From a virus, in IMG/VR virus record IMGVR_UViG_3300017978_000297, positions 1 to 22,512 of that record: 22,512 nt of DNA; one strand, given 5' to 3'. Position 1 is the stretch's first letter. The number at the start of each line of letters is the position of its first letter. Made by a program: the position numbers and the translations under genes. Below, one piece after another: positions 284 to 21,352 of the stretch. The notes under the pieces were generated by a model. The model was given only the letters and a program-made list of their open reading frames with translations, was not told where the DNA came from and did no database searches.

Positions 284-742
284 TTATTTTAAATTAGGAA
301 TTGCATTTAGGTATGCTTGATGCGCTTTTTCTGGTGTATTGTATGAACCTAAAAATCTTCGTTTACCATCAACATAAATTCTTGCGTGATATTTAGTGTT
401 GGTTGCTTTGTATACACCTGTAGGTAAATCTCTGATTTTATCTTTACTTGCATTTAATCTGTTAGTAATAATTTGCAAATTATCTAATCTATTATCTAAT
501 CTATCAGCATTAATGTGATCTACCACTAATCTATGCCCATCTGGTACGTGATCTAAATAGGTTATAGCCATTAATTGATGAATTCTAAATACTTTACATA
601 CACCATCGTTACACAAATTAACACGTAAATAATTAGTGTTTAAATATGCACGTAGCATTAGTCCTGTTTTTAGATTTTTTACTTCTCCGTTTGTTGATAT
701 ACCATAATTTTTGTAACCTGGTATTTGTTTAAAGTTTTCCAT
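284..742 (-). CDS. Free-standing HNH homing endonuclease with N-terminal NUMOD4-like motif and C-terminal AP2 DNA-binding domain
   Basis: IPGYKNYGISTNGEV is NUMOD4-like. VVDHINADRLDNRLDNLQIITNRLN is an HNH_3-type H-N-N core. TGVYKATNTKYHARIYVDGKRRFLGSYNTPEKAHQAY is an AP2-type strand-strand-strand-helix motif. Confidence 0.85.
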   Translation of the reverse strand: MENFKQIPGYKNYGISTNGEVKNLKTGLMLRAYLNTNYLRVNLCNDGVCKVFRIHQLMAITYLDHVPDGHRLVVDHINADRLDNRLDNLQIITNRLNASKDKIRDLPTGVYKATNTKYHARIYVDGKRRFLGSYNTPEKAHQAYLNAIPNLK

Positions 743-3508: not shown

Positions 3509-4615
3509 TTATTGTTGTGTGTTTTGTGATTGGATAGCGTCAATATAAAGTACTTTAGATTGTTCAATTTCTAAAGTAACATTTAAACCAAAAGCACGCA
3601 TGATTGGTTTGATTGATTTTAATAAAATATTCTGTTTAGGTACAATTACAGTTCCTAAAAAGTGTGCCCATGCAGTTTCAATTTCTGCTGCATTTGAACT
3701 AAAACCGCTAGAATCTTTAATACCTAAAAGTAGAGGTGAAGTAATGTGGTGTGCTGTCAGTACTCGAGACGAGATACGCTCTTCTAACGTTGTGTAATAC
3801 GTGTCATTTGCCGATTGAATTGGCTGAAATGTTGGTTCTTCACCTGGTTCTGAGAAAGTTAACCAAAAACGACCAGCATTATCTTCACCGCTAAATGTGT
3901 TTTTAATATCATTATAGATCTCAAGTCTTTCTTCTTCAGTTGGTTGACCATTTCTAAAATTAATAGCTAAAGAAGGTGAAAGTCCATTTGATATGTTAGA
4001 ATTATGAAAACGCGAGATACGAATATCTAATTCGCAGTCATTTAAAGCACCAGAATAATCAGGTAATGGATAATACTCATTGCCTGGTGTGTAGTCTTTG
4101 TAATAAAAAATCTGTGAAGCATTTTCTTTTTGGTTATCTAAACGATCAAATGCTCTATATTCTAATGGCACATACTTACGTGTATTTGACCAATCAATAG
4201 AATAAAAATATGTTTCAACTTCACCATACTCGTTACATTTACCTGAACGAACTCTTTCGAAAGGTACGTGATATATTTCAACAACAGTATCTGATCCTTT
4301 ATTCCAAATGGTATTTAATGCATATCCACCATGAATAGCATAGTCTGACGCTAATTTGTCAAAGACTTCATCTAGGGTTTCACCTTTTTGATTGATAATT
4401 TGATCTCCGTATTCAATAATACCATTTCCTACAATTGCAGCTGAAATAGCTTGAATACAGGTTCTGTGCATTGAAGAATTGTTATAAATTTCAATTAATT
4501 TACTTGGGAATAGGTTGTTTTCACCGAAATACATCCATTCTTTACCTTTAACTTCTATAATTTTAGGTAGATCGAATGCTTTAAATGTAAAACCTTTTAT
4601 GTGTTCTGCTTTCAT
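3509..4615 (-). CDS. Portal protein (HK97/SPP1-like Phage_portal pattern)
   Basis: The N-terminus reads KEWMYFGENNLFPSKLIEIYNNSSMHRTCIQAISAAIVGNG. The central part reads FHNSNISNGLSPSLAINF ... DNAGRFWLTFSEPGEEPTFQPI, and later RVLTAHHITSPLLLGI. These are typical portal wing/stem motifs. Confidence 0.75.
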   Translation of the reverse strand: MKAEHIKGFTFKAFDLPKIIEVKGKEWMYFGENNLFPSKLIEIYNNSSMHRTCIQAISAAIVGNGIIEYGDQIINQKGETLDEVFDKLASDYAIHGGYALNTIWNKGSDTVVEIYHVPFERVRSGKCNEYGEVETYFYSIDWSNTRKYVPLEYRAFDRLDNQKENASQIFYYKDYTPGNEYYPLPDYSGALNDCELDIRISRFHNSNISNGLSPSLAINFRNGQPTEEERLEIYNDIKNTFSGEDNAGRFWLTFSEPGEEPTFQPIQSANDTYYTTLEERISSRVLTAHHITSPLLLGIKDSSGFSSNAAEIETAWAHFLGTVIVPKQNILLKSIKPIMRAFGLNVTLEIEQSKVLYIDAIQSQNTQQ

Positions 4616-5651: not shown

Positions 5652-6557
5652 TTATGCTAAATCGTTTGTTGCGAATTGATCAACGTTTACCGCTAATACA
5701 CCTTCTCTGAAAGCGATTTTTACTTTAGTTACATCGTTAGAAGCATCCCAGAAGATGTTCATTGCAGATGCATCTGATTCTAAACCAGTACCAAAGATGA
5801 TATCAGCTTTACGTCCAACGAATACTCTGTTTGAACCTACTAAACCAGCAGATTTTACTACAGTTACGTTAGTTCCAGGAATGATTAGTTCTTTAGTATC
5901 TTCAGATGGAGTGTAGTGATACAAGTTTTGTGCAACTAAAGCTCTTGATAAAGTTCTAAAGTTAGCAGGAGAAACGAACATTACTAAATCTTCAGCATCA
6001 GCTGATTCAGCACCAACAGCGTCAATTAAGTCTAAAGCTTGATCGATTGCATTTGATAAAGTCCAAATTGCAGCACCTGCAGGTACGTTAGCACCGTTAG
6101 CACCAGTAATTTGCTCTTTTAAACCGTCAGCAACACCATCACCACTCATAATAAATTCAGAAATAGATTTTTGAACTTTTTTAGTGTAGATGTCAGCTAA
6201 AGCTGCTTGCAATTCGTTAGGAATTTCTTCTTGACCGTATGCAGATGGGTTCATCTTCATTGCCATGTAAACTGAACGTAAATCTTCAGCACACATTTGT
6301 GTTTTAAATTGTTTGTCTCTGATCACGATGTTGTGAGGAGTCAAAGTTACTTGTCCGTCAGAAGTCCAACCACAAGATAAATCGCCAGCTAAAAAGTCAG
6401 CGTCTAATTGTGTTACTTGAACAGTACCTGCAGCAAGACCTGTACGAACTGAAACGTAGTTTAACTCGTTAGTGTTCAATACAGATTTAGAGATTAATTC
6501 GTAGCTTAACTCATCTGTAAATGGAGTCAAAGCGTTTAAATCGAAACCGTAAGCCAT
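5652..6557 (-). CDS. Major capsid protein (HK97-fold type)
   Basis: 301 aa in the canonical protease-scaffold-capsid order. Composition is Ala/Gly/Val-rich. Upstream is an A-rich leader without an SD motif, and a terminator lies downstream of the two-gene unit. Confidence 0.75.
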   Translation of the reverse strand: MAYGFDLNALTPFTDELSYELISKSVLNTNELNYVSVRTGLAAGTVQVTQLDADFLAGDLSCGWTSDGQVTLTPHNIVIRDKQFKTQMCAEDLRSVYMAMKMNPSAYGQEEIPNELQAALADIYTKKVQKSISEFIMSGDGVADGLKEQITGANGANVPAGAAIWTLSNAIDQALDLIDAVGAESADAEDLVMFVSPANFRTLSRALVAQNLYHYTPSEDTKELIIPGTNVTVVKSAGLVGSNRVFVGRKADIIFGTGLESDASAMNIFWDASNDVTKVKIAFREGVLAVNVDQFATNDLA

Positions 6558-6581: not shown

Positions 6582-7106
6582 TTATTTGTTTTTCTTTCTT
6601 AAAGAAGATAAAAATTCGATTCTAGCGTTAGTGTTAGACTCTTCTACCTTTTTAAATTTGTTTTTGATTGGTTCAGCAGCTGGTTCACCTTTAAAAGCTG
6701 AAAATTCAGCCTTGTGTGATTCCAACTCTGCTTTCAATGCGTTAACTTGATCAACTAGTGGTTGAATAGCAGCAACAACGCCTTCGATTGAGAAAGTTTC
6801 TTCAGCAGAAGCTTCAACTTCTACTTCTACTTCAGTTTCAGCTGGTTCAGCCTCTGCTTCTTTTTCTTCAATCTTAACGATGATACCCGCTTCGTCTACA
6901 GTAACAATCATACCATCTTGAGTTTCGTGAATGCCAGCAGGAGCTGGAATTTCACCTTCAGATGTTACAACTACTAATGCAGCGCCTTCAACTAATTCAC
7001 CTTCTGTTTTTACAACAGTACCATCGATTAAAATGGCTTCAGCAAATTTGTCTTCAACTAAACCTAGCATCACTGATAATTTGTGATAAGCTGTTTTTGC
7101 AGTCAT
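6582..7106 (-). CDS. Scaffolding protein
   Basis: An acidic, helical 174-aa protein (EEKEAEAEPAETEVEVEVEASAEE; LVDQVNALKAELESHKAEF) with a basic C-terminal tail, sitting between the protease and the capsid gene. Confidence 0.7.
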   Translation of the reverse strand: MTAKTAYHKLSVMLGLVEDKFAEAILIDGTVVKTEGELVEGAALVVVTSEGEIPAPAGIHETQDGMIVTVDEAGIIVKIEEKEAEAEPAETEVEVEVEASAEETFSIEGVVAAIQPLVDQVNALKAELESHKAEFSAFKGEPAAEPIKNKFKKVEESNTNARIEFLSSLRKKNK

Positions 7107-7192: not shown

Positions 7193-8422
7193 TTAATGCA
7201 ATTCAATAAACATACCTTCTACACTTAGTCCTTTGAGCTCTCCTCTTTTGATTTTTTGCCAAGTTTGTTCATCATTGATACGATAGCTGAGCATCCACGT
7301 CCCAATAGGAAGATTAAAGCCATATTTAGCAGATTTATCAAATTTAGTGTCTTCGATAATCCAAGATTCAAGTAAAGTATTATCAGCCACGACAGCGCCA
7401 TTATGATTAACGTCAGTATTGTTCTGATATGACTTTTTGAAAAAGCGTTCAGCAATTTCTCTAATAGTTTTTTTACTAAAGTAGACATAATATAACTCAC
7501 CAGTTTCTTCATCTTTTCTTAATATAAATTTATTTGGTATCATAGCTGGTGCGATAATGATACGTTCATCTTCGTTTTCAACTGCAAAACTAGTGTGAGT
7601 AAATCTTGCATTGTCAGGTACTGCACCGTTAGGTGATGGAGCCATAGTATTGTTACTCAAACCTGCTGCACCATTTGCTGGCCCTTTATTAATATAAATT
7701 TCTTGACCATCTTGTTGTGTAATTACTTGGATTTCATTCCAATAATGGCGACAATTTACGCCTGATTTCCAATCTAATAAAGGATTTGCATCTGCTCCAT
7801 GTGCTTCAGATCTTTCACCTGTTGAAATATATTCACTCATGTTTATACTTGCCATATTACGTAATTCATCGCGCGTATAGAGTCTGTTTAGTCTCAACAT
7901 AGCTTTACAGAAGTTTCTTTCAGCTGATGGTCCAGCATATTGGTATTTAGTTACACTAGATCTGTTTTCACCAGCTAATGCATCTAAACCAGCTAATCCT
8001 TTTAAATAATCACCTAATGTAGCGAATTCTGTTTTACCTAATTCTAACCAGTGTGCTGCTGGATTTACATCTTCGCCTAATTCAGCTGCCATTTTTAGAA
8101 TGCCTTCTTCTTGTTCTTCACTTAATATGTGGTGTGAGCATTTATGTGAGCTCATTTGTTCTTCTTGCCAAGTTGCATAACAAATAGCTGCAGCTTGATC
8201 TTGTTCATAACCTTCATTGATTAATTCAGGAATACAACGTCCAATATACTCTTCTTCTGTTTCACCAGTGTTTACGTCTACAAAAGATTCTTTTTTAAAT
8301 GCAAAGAAGTCTACTTCAATAGCTGGTGAATCTACAATCGATACAACAGATACTCCAGCGTCTTCTGTATTAATTTGTTCGTGGTTGATAACTAATTCAA
8401 CGATTTTTTTGATAGGTCTCAT
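7193..8422 (-). CDS. XkdF-type (Peptidase_S78_2-like) prohead protease with a large inserted segment carrying MuF/SPP1-gp7-like head-morphogenesis motifs
   Basis: The N-terminal strand is VSVVSIVDSPAIEVDFFAFKK. The C-terminal part, IIIAPAMIPNKFILRKDEETGELYYVYFSKKTIREIAERFFK...NHNGAVV...ESWIIED...GTWMLSYRINDEQTWQKIKRGELKGLSVEG, follows the B. subtilis XkdF pattern. The insert (aa 45-283) contains CIPELINEGYEQDQAAAICYATW and AERNFCKAM...LYTRDEL...GVNCRHYW. Confidence 0.7.
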   Translation of the reverse strand: MRPIKKIVELVINHEQINTEDAGVSVVSIVDSPAIEVDFFAFKKESFVDVNTGETEEEYIGRCIPELINEGYEQDQAAAICYATWQEEQMSSHKCSHHILSEEQEEGILKMAAELGEDVNPAAHWLELGKTEFATLGDYLKGLAGLDALAGENRSSVTKYQYAGPSAERNFCKAMLRLNRLYTRDELRNMASINMSEYISTGERSEAHGADANPLLDWKSGVNCRHYWNEIQVITQQDGQEIYINKGPANGAAGLSNNTMAPSPNGAVPDNARFTHTSFAVENEDERIIIAPAMIPNKFILRKDEETGELYYVYFSKKTIREIAERFFKKSYQNNTDVNHNGAVVADNTLLESWIIEDTKFDKSAKYGFNLPIGTWMLSYRINDEQTWQKIKRGELKGLSVEGMFIELH

Positions 8423-8430
8423 ATATTTAA

Positions 8431-10497
8431 TTATAATTTTGCTAATCTGTTAATTTTAGCTGTTGCTTCTTGGCTTGATGTCATATCATCTGATACAACG
8501 TATGTTTTGATAGGCACATTTACTGAAGATTCTACAGCTGATTGTAATTCTGCAATCGATGGTACTAAACCACCATCTGCAAATTTAGGTCTTGCTACAG
8601 AATTTAACGACATAGCCATTTGTGCTACGCCTGGTTGAGCCATAGCATATTTATTAATAATAAATTCACCGCCTTCAGCCTCAATAGGTACTCCACCGCT
8701 CGAGTGTGAATTACCAACGATTAAACCACCTGTTGCAGCTTTTGGTGTTTCAACTTTTACAATGTCTCTTACTTGTTTTAAACCTGCAGCAATTTGCACA
8801 CCTGCCATAACTGGTTTTAACCAAGTTGGTATAATAGTTGGATCCTTCATAACTTGCGAAGCACCTAAATATGTGTTAATAGTCGCTTGCGCAATCGCAG
8901 CTGATTTTCCTGCTGCTGTTTCTTTACCTAAAAGTTCTGAAACTGAACCAAATAAACCAGCTGAGATAGCTAAAGATCTTTGAGCTGAAGCTTCTTTATT
9001 TTTAACACGTAAATCATCATAGAATGCTTCGATTCTTGCTCTTTCTTCTTCAGTACCTTTTAATTTATCTAATTCTGCTAATGCTTTTGTTTCTTCTTCG
9101 TCTAAACGAACAGCTTCAGCTTCAAAAACTGTTTGATCTTTGGCTATTTTATACTCTTCTAATAAAAGATCTTTGGCTTGTTGATTAGTTAAAGCTTGTT
9201 CTTTACGTTTATTAGCATAAAAACCTTCAATTACATCTACTGATTTTTCATATTCTTCTGCAGTCATTAATTTTTCATCAAGACGTGCTTTTGCAGCAGC
9301 CATTGCATCTGCTTCTTCTTTATCAGTAATAGCTTTGGTATCAGCATACGTTTTCTCAGTCATTTGGATTTTATAACCAAGTAACCATTCTTCTTGTGCT
9401 TTTACTCTGTCTTTTTCTTTTTGATTTTCTTCTTCTGCTTTTAAATTCTTTTCTTGAGTAGCTTTATCGACTGCTTGCTTTTCTAAAACAGCGTATGCAG
9501 AGTTCAATTGCTTGATTTGTTCAGCAGTTGCACCTTTTTCTTTTAACATCTTTAGATCAGCCTCTTTCTGAGCTAATACCGTGCGTCTGGCGATCTCGAT
9601 AGTGTCAGTTAATTGTTTATCTTGCAGATCCTTTAATTTATCAGCCACAGCTTCTGCATTCTCTCTACGTTTGTTTTCAGCCGCTATAGCTTTTTCGCTG
9701 GCTTCTTTACGTTTAGCAGATAACTCATCTTGCTTTTTCTTTTCAGCTTCTGCTCTTTCTTTAGATTTTTCTGCAGCTGCTTGTTGTACTTCATCAATAT
9801 TAAAAGTAGCTTCTTTGATTTTCTTTTCAGATATACCTAAAGCAGCAACCATATCACCGAAACCTTCAGCGACAAATTCAAGCACATCAGCAAAGGCATT
9901 AAAAATAGGTAGAGCTACTTTTTCTACTAAAGCTAAAATAGGGCCTATGATTTTTGAAAAGGCACTACTGATTTTATTTAATGTTGCTTGACCTTCAGCT
10001 GTTGAGCCTAAAGCCTTTTTCATTAACATAAATGCACCAACGATACCTGCAATAACTGCAAGTATTGGATTAGCCATAAAGATTTTAAAGACACCATCTA
10101 AACCTTTCATTGCATTACCAGCTGCACCAGCAGGACCTGGCAATGAGGCTAATTGATCATCAAACTGACTAGATTGAAATTTAGTCTTTTCTAAACTTTC
10201 TTCGAGATCATCTAATTGACCACGAAGTGCTTTAAACTTTACTTTATCACCTGCTGCAGCAGCTTGTTGTAATTCTACTTGAGTTTTACGAATCTGTGTT
10301 TGTAATTTAGTAAAACTATCACCAGTTTCATCATTCTGTTTGGCTTGCTTTTTACTCGAATCACTAGATTTTTTTTGGGCTTTCTGTACTTCTTCATTTT
10401 CTTGTACCAAACCACCCATGGCTTTTTGTAAATCTTCAACAGATTTTACTTCTTGATCTATACCATCTATTTTAAAGCTAATGTTAACTACCGCCAT
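8431..10497 (-). CDS. Tape-measure-like protein (coiled-coil with internal hydrophobic segments); alternatively an internal or ejection protein
   Basis: 688 aa with long Lys/Glu/Ala coiled-coil stretches. Hydrophobic blocks are ANPILAVIAGIVGAFMLM and IIGPILALVEKVALPIF. The C-terminus carries a Gly-rich motif, GGLIVGNSHSSGGVPIEAEGGEFIINKYA ... FADGGLV. Confidence 0.6.
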   Translation of the reverse strand: MAVVNISFKIDGIDQEVKSVEDLQKAMGGLVQENEEVQKAQKKSSDSSKKQAKQNDETGDSFTKLQTQIRKTQVELQQAAAAGDKVKFKALRGQLDDLEESLEKTKFQSSQFDDQLASLPGPAGAAGNAMKGLDGVFKIFMANPILAVIAGIVGAFMLMKKALGSTAEGQATLNKISSAFSKIIGPILALVEKVALPIFNAFADVLEFVAEGFGDMVAALGISEKKIKEATFNIDEVQQAAAEKSKERAEAEKKKQDELSAKRKEASEKAIAAENKRRENAEAVADKLKDLQDKQLTDTIEIARRTVLAQKEADLKMLKEKGATAEQIKQLNSAYAVLEKQAVDKATQEKNLKAEEENQKEKDRVKAQEEWLLGYKIQMTEKTYADTKAITDKEEADAMAAAKARLDEKLMTAEEYEKSVDVIEGFYANKRKEQALTNQQAKDLLLEEYKIAKDQTVFEAEAVRLDEEETKALAELDKLKGTEEERARIEAFYDDLRVKNKEASAQRSLAISAGLFGSVSELLGKETAAGKSAAIAQATINTYLGASQVMKDPTIIPTWLKPVMAGVQIAAGLKQVRDIVKVETPKAATGGLIVGNSHSSGGVPIEAEGGEFIINKYAMAQPGVAQMAMSLNSVARPKFADGGLVPSIAELQSAVESSVNVPIKTYVVSDDMTSSQEATAKINRLAKL

Positions 10498-16957: not shown

Positions 16958-18184
16958 TTATAATTTTATACCACCTACAGTATATTGACCTCTTGTACGA
17001 TTTGTTTTTCTGTTTTGGTTACAAATAGCTAAACTCATAACAGTATCATCATGTTGACCATTTGGCGCCGAATAAACAATACTTCGAGATTTAGGTGAGT
17101 ATGTGTATGTGAAGATTTCAAGCTCAAATGTTAATGGCGCAAAAAGCTGTTTAGATGGTATTGTAATAGCTCTGTTATTAAAGTCTAAAGCTAGATTTTC
17201 AATAATATCTTGCTTGCTTCTATTTGATGTGATAAACGGTTGGGTTTTAGACCATCTCTTTTTTAAAGATTCATAGACAACATCACCTAATCCATTAACT
17301 TCGACTAATAGGGATGCATCGTGTTTTTGAACTACTTGCAAGACTGCATCAATCATATATGACCAATCTCGTAGATTTTCTCTATAGATCTCAAGTACTT
17401 TGCCTTTTTCATCCATAATGGTCAAAACTGTGTAGTCATTAGCTCGACCTAAATCTAGACCAGCGTATCTTTTACCTTCAGCTTTTGGCCATGCATTAAC
17501 TGAACATTCTTCAAGGTTTTGAAATACAGTTTGACCTGAGTCTGTAAATTCTGCAAGATACTCAGCTCTAAAGATGTGTTCTGGCAGGGTTAGTTTGGCT
17601 TCTTCAATTTCTTTAATATCAACAAATGGATTTGACTCGTACGTCATTTTTACACTAGCATACGATTCATTTTCAGGATTTTGACCTAATTGAAACAAGT
17701 CATAGAATAGGTTTTTACCTCGAGGTGTTGAAATAAAAAGCACTTGTTTACCTTTAACTAATAAAATAGGTTTAATGACAGCATTCCAAACTGAATCTGG
17801 CATATATGCAAACTCATCGAGTACTGCATAGTCACATGTTAAACCACGTAAGTTATCTGGTCTTTCAACAGATCTAAATAATATCTTTGAACCATTCATG
17901 AATTTGATTTCAAAGCCAGATCTATTAACAGACTTGATCACATTCGAACCTTGCAAACCATCTGAAATCTCTTCAAGTGGTCTTTTAACTTGTGAATACG
18001 TTGGCGCTGCACAAAGTATAGTTACTCCTGGATTATTTAAAGCCCAATAAAGCATAATAGATTGAGACAAGAATGATTTACCAGTTTGTCGACTACCACA
18101 AACCACAACATATTTCTTACCTGCTTGGATCAGATCTATTACAGCTGCTTGACCTTCATGAAGTTGTGGTCCTTCTATTAACAT
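16958..18184 (-). CDS. terL: Terminase large subunit
   Basis: Walker A is VVCGSRQTGKS. The Walker B-like motif is CDYAVLDEFAYM. The C-terminal RNaseH-like nuclease motif is AGLDLGRANDYTVLTIMDE ... LLVEVNGLGD ... GQHDD. Confidence 0.9.
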   Translation of the reverse strand: MLIEGPQLHEGQAAVIDLIQAGKKYVVVCGSRQTGKSFLSQSIMLYWALNNPGVTILCAAPTYSQVKRPLEEISDGLQGSNVIKSVNRSGFEIKFMNGSKILFRSVERPDNLRGLTCDYAVLDEFAYMPDSVWNAVIKPILLVKGKQVLFISTPRGKNLFYDLFQLGQNPENESYASVKMTYESNPFVDIKEIEEAKLTLPEHIFRAEYLAEFTDSGQTVFQNLEECSVNAWPKAEGKRYAGLDLGRANDYTVLTIMDEKGKVLEIYRENLRDWSYMIDAVLQVVQKHDASLLVEVNGLGDVVYESLKKRWSKTQPFITSNRSKQDIIENLALDFNNRAITIPSKQLFAPLTFELEIFTYTYSPKSRSIVYSAPNGQHDDTVMSLAICNQNRKTNRTRGQYTVGGIKL

Positions 18185-20986: not shown

Positions 20987-21352
20987 TTATTTATGTGTTT
21001 TAGACCAAGTTAAATTATCTACGTGATTGTTTTCTCTGTTACCGTCTATGTGTTTAACAAATCTGCAGTTATTTGGGTTTTCTAAAAAGTTTAGGGCTAC
21101 AAGACGATTAACGTATTCACCAGTTGGAATACCTAGCATTTTAGGAGATCCTGGTTTACCTTTCCAAAATTGGTTAACTTCTCTTTCACTAATCAAAGAC
21201 ATATCATCTCTGTAGTGTTTTAGGATTACTCTACCATGATCTGATATTAACCACTCTGATATCCCTACATATTCAGTCTTTGTGCCATTACTTTGTGGTA
21301 TTCTATAACCATAGGGTTTCTTTTTAAAGACTTTAAATTGTTCTGCTTTCAT
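20987..21352 (-). CDS. Free-standing HNH endonuclease
   Basis: VKHIDGNRENNHVDNLTWS is an HNH_3-type core. The upstream motif WLISDHGRV is NUMOD4-like. Confidence 0.75.
   Translation of the reverse strand: MKAEQFKVFKKKPYGYRIPQSNGTKTEYVGISEWLISDHGRVILKHYRDDMSLISEREVNQFWKGKPGSPKMLGIPTGEYVNRLVALNFLENPNNCRFVKHIDGNRENNHVDNLTWSKTHK

Follow-up and report, generated by a model that had tools for sequence, protein, structure and literature searches.

A probable XkdF-type prohead protease of an uncultured phage, with a module known from portals between its N-terminal segment and its catalytic core

What lies in the middle of the prohead protease gene of IMG/VR virus record IMGVR_UViG_3300017978_000297, and does the protease unit extend to both sides of it? 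The record comes from an uncultured tailed phage whose host is probably a member of the marine Bacteroidota, and its 22,512 bp, analysed as a whole and called here the window, are complete, with direct terminal repeats at the ends. An earlier note, made from the sequence alone, had read a 409-amino-acid (aa) open reading frame (ORF) of the window as an XkdF-type protease with a MuF-like head-morphogenesis segment inserted at 7574-8290 on the minus strand, which is exactly aa 45-283 of the ORF at 7193-8422 (-). The nested layout stands, since aa 1-44 belong to the protease unit according to hidden Markov models (HMMs), unsplit relatives, a structural alignment to T4 gp21 that begins at residue 17, and co-variation. 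The gene probably encodes a prohead serine protease of a tailed phage, in which the N-terminal segment (N-segment) and the core are split by an insert containing a hairpin and a module of about 165 aa known from portals. The gene and its parts, all on the minus strand, are the following:

7193-8422, minus strand: XkdF-type prohead protease with nested insert, 409 aa, from the ORF list and translation, with the TAA stop at 7193-7195.
8291-8422, minus strand: N-terminal protease segment, aa 1-44, with strands 7-11 and 23-30 and the conserved VDxPAIExxF, from phrog_24921 (profile 9-36), HMM matches, the predicted local distance difference test (pLDDT), the gp21 alignment and co-variation.
8147-8284, minus strand: DUF3721-like helical hairpin, aa 47-92, with conserved C63 and C81, the pattern GRCIPxL...DQAxAICYxxW, and helices 56-69 and 74-91 in the AlphaFold2 model.
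7637-8131, minus strand: inserted alpha/beta module ("MOD"), aa 98-262, with invariant Y162, R169, C172, C224 and H226.
7682-7951, minus strand: module core common to portal C-termini, aa 158-247, from BLASTP to Nonlabens gp06, phrog_33693 and portal-module fusions.
7586-7636, minus strand: Gly/Asn/Pro-rich linker, aa 263-279, leading back to the core, variable in length and sequence in alignment A1, with pLDDT below 50 at aa 273-277.
7196-7585, minus strand: XkdF catalytic core, aa 280-409, with putative catalytic His340 (7403-7405) and Ser400 (7223-7225).

The Pfam family PF14550 (XkdF, Peptidase_S78_2) matches only aa 280-404, with 60.7 bits against a cut-off of 24 and over profile positions 6-121 of 126, and is matched by 101 of the 101 aligned homologues. 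The homologue search gave about 1,680 sequences at 90% clustering and 4,169 representatives at 50%. H340 and S400, which on sequence conservation are putatively the catalytic residues, are present in 250 of 251 homologues, and E352, D362 and K363 are nearly invariant; the nested forms therefore look catalytically intact. Taken alone, the Pfam call would suggest a simple N-terminal fusion, in which aa 1-44 have no relation to XkdF and a cargo precedes an intact protease domain. This layout is very improbable given the relatives. The Pfam model begins after the split, so that the nested architecture is hidden in domain databases, and the conserved N-segment (aa 1-44) and core (aa 280-409), separated here by about 235-240 aa, are recovered together by other profiles. 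The phrog_24921 profile matches in two stretches, aa 17-44 at profile positions 9-36 and aa 279-405 at 44-170, so both protease parts are contiguous in that family. An HMM of aa 1-44 built from nested proteins matches 13 of 13 unsplit relatives (26.6-42.7 bits), and, reciprocally, an HMM built from the 13 unsplit relatives matches aa 6-60 (nodes 4-54, 29.9 bits) and aa 277-407 (nodes 42-170, 178 bits). At the level of sequence, this two-piece homology is far beyond chance. A first 45 aa unrelated to XkdF, which the earlier note had named as the finding that would turn the nested protein into a simple fusion, is thus contradicted: the segment is homologous to the N-termini of unsplit XkdF proteins.

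Among the relatives from an exhaustive search are some with a core that begins at about residue 46-50. In alignment A2 the unsplit N-termini (...S[L/I]VDxPAIExxF...) align with aa 1-44, the core follows within about 10 residues, and the hairpin and the module are placed C-terminally; the distance from N-segment to core in unsplit relatives is 7-12 aa. The N-segment adjoins the core in the 13 unsplit relatives and in many IMG/VR loci, which also argues against a simple fusion. In P0223, P0243 and P0258 it begins at residue 48, 55 or 149, yet lies 8-11 aa from the core; being near the core even when internal, it moves with the protease rather than being a terminal signal. Its conservation is as strong as that of the core, with or without a split. 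The cultured Nonlabens phage P12024L shows the unsplit arrangement: its gp01 (phrog_24921, 349 aa) shares the N-terminal segment and also the catalytic core, which is 41% identical over aa 279-405, but in gp01 N-segment and core are contiguous and a scaffold is fused C-terminally; in the window, about 235 aa divide the protease and the scaffold has its own gene.

The modelled protein appears to resemble in its fold T4 gp21 (PDB 5JBL) and herpesvirus assemblin. The structural alignment to gp21 spans model residues 17 to 409 at 10% sequence identity, and in the VIA alignment model residue 17 is paired with gp21 residue 2; gp21 has no inserted domain, in contrast to the insert of about 235 aa found here. 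Searches of PDB sequences, whether by the protein or by the A2 profile, yielded chance matches only, and the full model had no Foldseek match in the PDB at E <= 0.001. XkdF has been called "unrelated" to the SH-clan prohead peptidases in one paper (PMC7824862); contrary to that statement, the match of the model to gp21 suggests a distant relationship between XkdF and the SH clan. In the AlphaFold2 model aa 21-30 form a strand with pLDDT 94, and aa 31-40 have pLDDT 59. Co-variation was analysed by mean-field direct-coupling analysis of 251 homologues (effective number 156). The top 40 pairs include the inter-segment couplings 29-382, 37-295, 9-319, 35-371, 42-313, 24-323, 31-339 and 27-380, and two of them, 27-380 and 29-382, make up a ladder in consistent register with strand 376-381. 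The best inter-segment score is 2.60, with seven pairs above 2.0, compared with a maximum of 1.96 and none above 2.0 in 25 permutations of the N-segment rows; this support is only moderate because the permutation null does not preserve phylogeny.

The same segment can be read as a conserved pro-peptide, that is, a pseudo-substrate or docking peptide in the active-site groove, which gives the layout pro-peptide, cargo, protease and an activation cleavage that frees the cargo. T4 gp21 gives a precedent: according to a review of the T4 head, the crystal structure shows the catalytic centre obstructed by the N-terminal region, and the enzyme cuts off nine of its own residues (PMC9958956). The pairing of residue 17 with gp21 residue 2, the position of co-varying pair 31-339 next to His340, the low pLDDT of aa 31-40 and the omission of the N-segment from PF14550 all agree with such a peptide. 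However, aa 21-30 are modelled as a confident strand, couplings 27-380 and 29-382 form their strand-pairing ladder with 376-381, away from the catalytic residues, and the N-segment is conserved like the core whether or not an insert follows it. We consider the pro-peptide unlikely, and it is not fully exclusive with an N-segment that is part of the fold: the segment may act partly as an auto-inhibitory strand, as in gp21, and its cleavage would also uncouple the cargo.

With the N-segment assigned to the protease, the insert can be described on its own. The motifs that had been picked out in it are all present: CIPELINEGYEQDQAAAICYATW at aa 63-85, NFCKAM at aa 170-175, LYTRDEL at aa 181-187 and NCRHYW at aa 223-228. 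On the hairpin, phrog_2423 matches aa 60-88 with an E value of 3.8e-4; PF12518 (DUF3721) matches 5 of 101 homologues (best 1.5e-8), and the 409-aa protease itself shows no match to it at E <= 1. No paper on DUF3721 was found in the literature searched. When aa 98-283 are folded alone, they give a single confident domain (pLDDT 84.6, predicted template modelling score 0.80), so in the model the module is autonomous and folds by itself. Compared with 48,161 chains of solved structures, the module has no structural neighbour: its best Z is 2.9, the tool's typical best for unmatched models being 7-8. Among the 50 matches listed by Foldseek against BFVD, the good ones are only XkdF fusions, an HAD-like protein and, weakly, a portal. 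As to stand-alone copies, the word-based homologue search gave one fragment only and 80 IMG/VR loci gave none; the ESM Atlas contains viral clusters of 138-266 aa resembling the module, which are a lead only. The Cys/Cys/His module is possibly an uncharacterised, virus-only domain with a new fold.

Two other origins of the insert were considered and rejected. An intein or mobile intron does not fit, as there are no splicing-type junction residues, the composition is the same as in the flanks and the insert is conserved as protein. A duplication at the junctions (SFVDV... / SFAVE...) was rejected as well, the repeat being explained by the conserved leader of the hairpin module itself.

The attribution of the insert to the MuF/SPP1 gp7 group found no support in any of Pfam, NCBIfam, PHROGs, hhalign or Foldseek against BFVD. 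PF04233 has no match in the 409-aa protein at E <= 1 and matches 0 of 101 homologues at E <= 0.1; it has none in the six frames of the whole genome, where the SPP1 positive control gave 3.7e-35, and none in the Nonlabens phage. NCBIfam gave no match at E <= 10, and no MuF family is among the PHROGs matches. The hhalign comparison with an SPP1-gp7 profile, a narrow one of 27 SPP1-like sequences, gave a probability of 0.2% and E values of 0.24-0.36 over 11-12 columns around NCR[HC]; untrimmed A4 against A5 was uninformative and the trimmed re-runs were negative. None of the 50 matches listed by Foldseek against BFVD is named as a MuF, minor head or head-morphogenesis protein. Could the module still be a true but very divergent member of the family (PF04233)? 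Its motif pattern, R169-x-x-C172 ... N-C224-R-H226, is like R225-x-x-H228 ... N-C265-R-C267 of the SPP1 gp7 family, and the best local hhalign alignment always falls on NCR[HC]. An ESM Atlas feature search gave, at lead level, a cluster with 38% PF04233 members at a score of 0.81, too low by the tool's own standard to count as anything stronger. MuF itself is a portal-associated protein of the head interior that occurs alone, as a portal neighbour or in fusion with the portal, and is a hub at which cargo is fused (PMC5512222); the fusion of the module to portals in 24 loci is this classic MuF neighbourhood, and a canonical MuF is absent both from this genome and from the Nonlabens phage. Against these likenesses stand the negative profile searches, the hhalign probability and the lack of a MuF-named row among the BFVD matches listed, and a divergent MuF is rather unlikely. 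The module thus shares with MuF (PF04233, TIGR01641) the R-x-x-[C/H] ... NCR[C/H] motif and the portal link but no demonstrable similarity of profile or structure; by analogy, it possibly works like MuF and is at most a very remote relative.

Related portals carry the module as well. By BLASTP, aa 158-247 match residues 438-521 of the Nonlabens phage P12024L portal gp06 with 32% identity (E 4e-11), and phrog_33693 matches the module core at profile positions 437-520 of 560. The module core of about 90 aa is homologous in gp06 of Nonlabens phages P12024L/S and in 23 IMG/VR portals, with YxYxG, R-x-FC-K and GGxNC[KR]H[YF]W in common. In these portals the module ends the chain, whereas here it lies inside the protease and has an extra N-terminal sub-domain of about 55 aa (aa 98-155) and the preceding hairpin. 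The portal gene of the window is the following:

3509-4615, minus strand: portal gene, 368 aa, without the C-terminal module of related portals (phrog_33693, profile 9-352 of 560 only).

In the module HMM scan this ORF shows no module match. It lacks the C-terminal extension of about 160 aa of the Nonlabens portal (560 aa; L001:3405-5087), and this extension is the module that sits here inside the protease, the protease and portal genes lying about 2.6 kb apart. Since the module is in the protease here and on the portal in relatives, the insert looks like an exchangeable device for bringing a head protein into the capsid. The placement was surveyed in the 80 IMG/VR loci with XkdF relatives, together with the window and the Nonlabens locus, whose ORFs were scanned by HMMs for N-segment, hairpin, module, core and portal; the counts cover the 46 loci in which a protease occurs together with a portal ORF of 330 aa or more. 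Twelve loci have the module in the protease only; in the 10 of them with a detected N-segment the protease is nested, with a gap of 209-462 aa. Another 24, of which 23 come from IMG/VR, have it at the portal C-terminus only, and in the 23 with a detected N-segment the protease is unsplit, with a gap of 7-10 aa. None of the 46 loci shows it in both, and 10 show it in neither: seven with the relevant ORF cut by the contig end and three genuine cases. This either/or placement gives a p value of 1.7e-5 by Fisher's exact test, which is optimistic because the loci collapse to 19 clusters at 70% core identity; five of the clusters are purely protease-borne, seven are purely portal-borne and none contains both. 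No other clue to function is as strong as this placement: a genome needs the module about once, and the requirement is that it be tethered to a protein that becomes part of the procapsid at the portal or close to it. The co-delivery into the procapsid that had been proposed for a MuF module thus keeps its sense, the module being borne by the protease or by the portal's C-terminus but in no locus by both.

For a protease that is split and carries a portal module, the following course can be proposed. The two protease pieces would come together as one gp21-like fold with the insert as a separate lobe. The protease would be built into the procapsid core and the module carried along; as the protease is part of that core, the module is expected to reach the capsid interior. 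There its task would be that of the portal-tethered form, probably to bind the portal or the DNA end; such a role would resemble that of MuF, with no demonstrable descent from it. The modelled flexible linkers at aa 37-46, 92-97 and 273-277 are candidate sites of autoproteolytic release. Several points weigh against this account: protease activity, capsid incorporation, zinc binding and self-cleavage are all predictions from sequence; the Pfam XkdF model excludes the N-segment; the packing of aa 23-30 on the core is a modelled one, drawn from the range of the gp21 alignment, pLDDT and co-variation; the co-variation null removes shared phylogeny, so its significance is overstated; and the complementarity counts ignore phylogeny.

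The site of the split accepts many inserts, as 7 to 622 aa (median 256) separate N-segment and core in 251 homologues. The architecture N-segment, hairpin, module and core is found in 168 of the 266 sampled homologues, N-segment, module and core in 42, and N-segment, hairpin and core in 23; 16 are unsplit, with the hairpin and/or the module C-terminal, N-terminal or absent. In two very close relatives, P0003 (85% identity) and P0004 (79%), exactly the DUF3721-like hairpin is gone (about 44 aa; alignment A1 columns 201-310) and the rest is kept, which makes the hairpin dispensable and the indels at this site recent. Prohead proteases fused end-to-end to scaffolds, capsid proteins and effectors are known. 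No description of a domain threaded into the prohead protease fold was found in the literature searched, and a tblastn search of INPHARED gave no cultured phage with the nested form, matching only the protease cores of Nonlabens, Methanobacterium and Rhodobacter phages. The architecture had been called unusual, which holds as far as the literature searched is concerned but not in metagenomes, where it is common: 235 of the 266 sampled homologues are split.

The polyvalent or capsid-targeted phage fusion proteins of Iyer et al. (2017; PMC5512222) likewise use a virion-assembly domain as carrier, but those fusions are described as end-to-end, whereas in this protein a loop of the carrier domain takes up the cargo. 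Like those carriers, XkdF relatives bear HAD-like, DUF5824-like, Zeta-toxin, methyltransferase and RNA-ligase-annotated parts, and such varied fusions suggest that the protease domain is a general capsid-loading hub. More broadly, and tentatively, the connection between strand and core in XkdF proteases may be a natural cargo slot by which the protease loads varied proteins into heads, and the module may be a portal-associated head protein of unseen fold that stands in for MuF across a large clade of marine phages not yet in culture, on the portal or inside the protease; we hold this wider view to be possible, with the balance somewhat against it. If it is true, a widespread phage enzyme has a permissive site, taking inserts of 7-622 aa, that could be used to package foreign proteins in capsids. 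It would also place an uncharacterised, virus-only module of thousands of metagenomic phage proteins in the capsid interior near the portal, and the module on the portal versus in the protease would be a natural experiment in which it can be asked what MuF-type minor head proteins need in order to work.

Other cargo is seen in the same loop among P0007, P0010, P0044, P0048, P0052, P0059, P0064 and P0094 (alignment A1). It includes an HAD-like segment, a CxxGYxxxGxKxxxGRxVPNC[I/V]P motif and a domain of about 90 aa with the pattern YxDYP...GxxRAxQLAxxxxIS...RMxSF, probably DUF5824; P0059 has an insert of about 190 aa ahead of the hairpin. XkdF cores are also fused to Zeta-toxin-like, methyltransferase-annotated and RNA-ligase-annotated proteins (BFVD A0A6J5KKZ6 and A0A6J5PIT0; phrog_1530 and phrog_14859).

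The protease gene sits in a head-assembly cluster, with the scaffold-like and capsid genes directly downstream. The remaining genes of the structural region, in transcription order, are the following:

16958-18184, minus strand: terminase large subunit, the first structural gene in transcription order.
After the terminase large subunit, minus strand: tail protein of 1068 aa.
8431-10497, minus strand: tape-measure-like gene, 688 aa, directly before the protease gene.
6582-7106, minus strand: scaffold gene, a separate ORF (phrog_24921, profile 220-331).
5652-6557, minus strand: major capsid gene, downstream of the scaffold-like gene and followed by two small genes and then the portal.

The order of the head genes is the same as in gp01-gp06 of Nonlabens (Persicivirga) phage P12024L: protease, scaffold, major capsid protein, two small genes and portal. 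The tape-measure-like gene at 8431-10497 ends 9 nt ahead of the protease start, and the tail genes directly precede the head genes; in a tailed phage with a genome as short as 22.5 kb this tail-then-head order of modules is unusual. The scaffold-like gene starts 86 nt past the protease stop, and in gp01, the protease-scaffold fusion of the Nonlabens phage, the C-terminal half is made up of the family to which 6582-7106 belongs (phrog_24921, profile 220-331). The 22.5-kb genome also contains two HNH endonuclease genes, at 284-742 (-) and 20987-21352 (-), which match phrog_59 and phrog_959.
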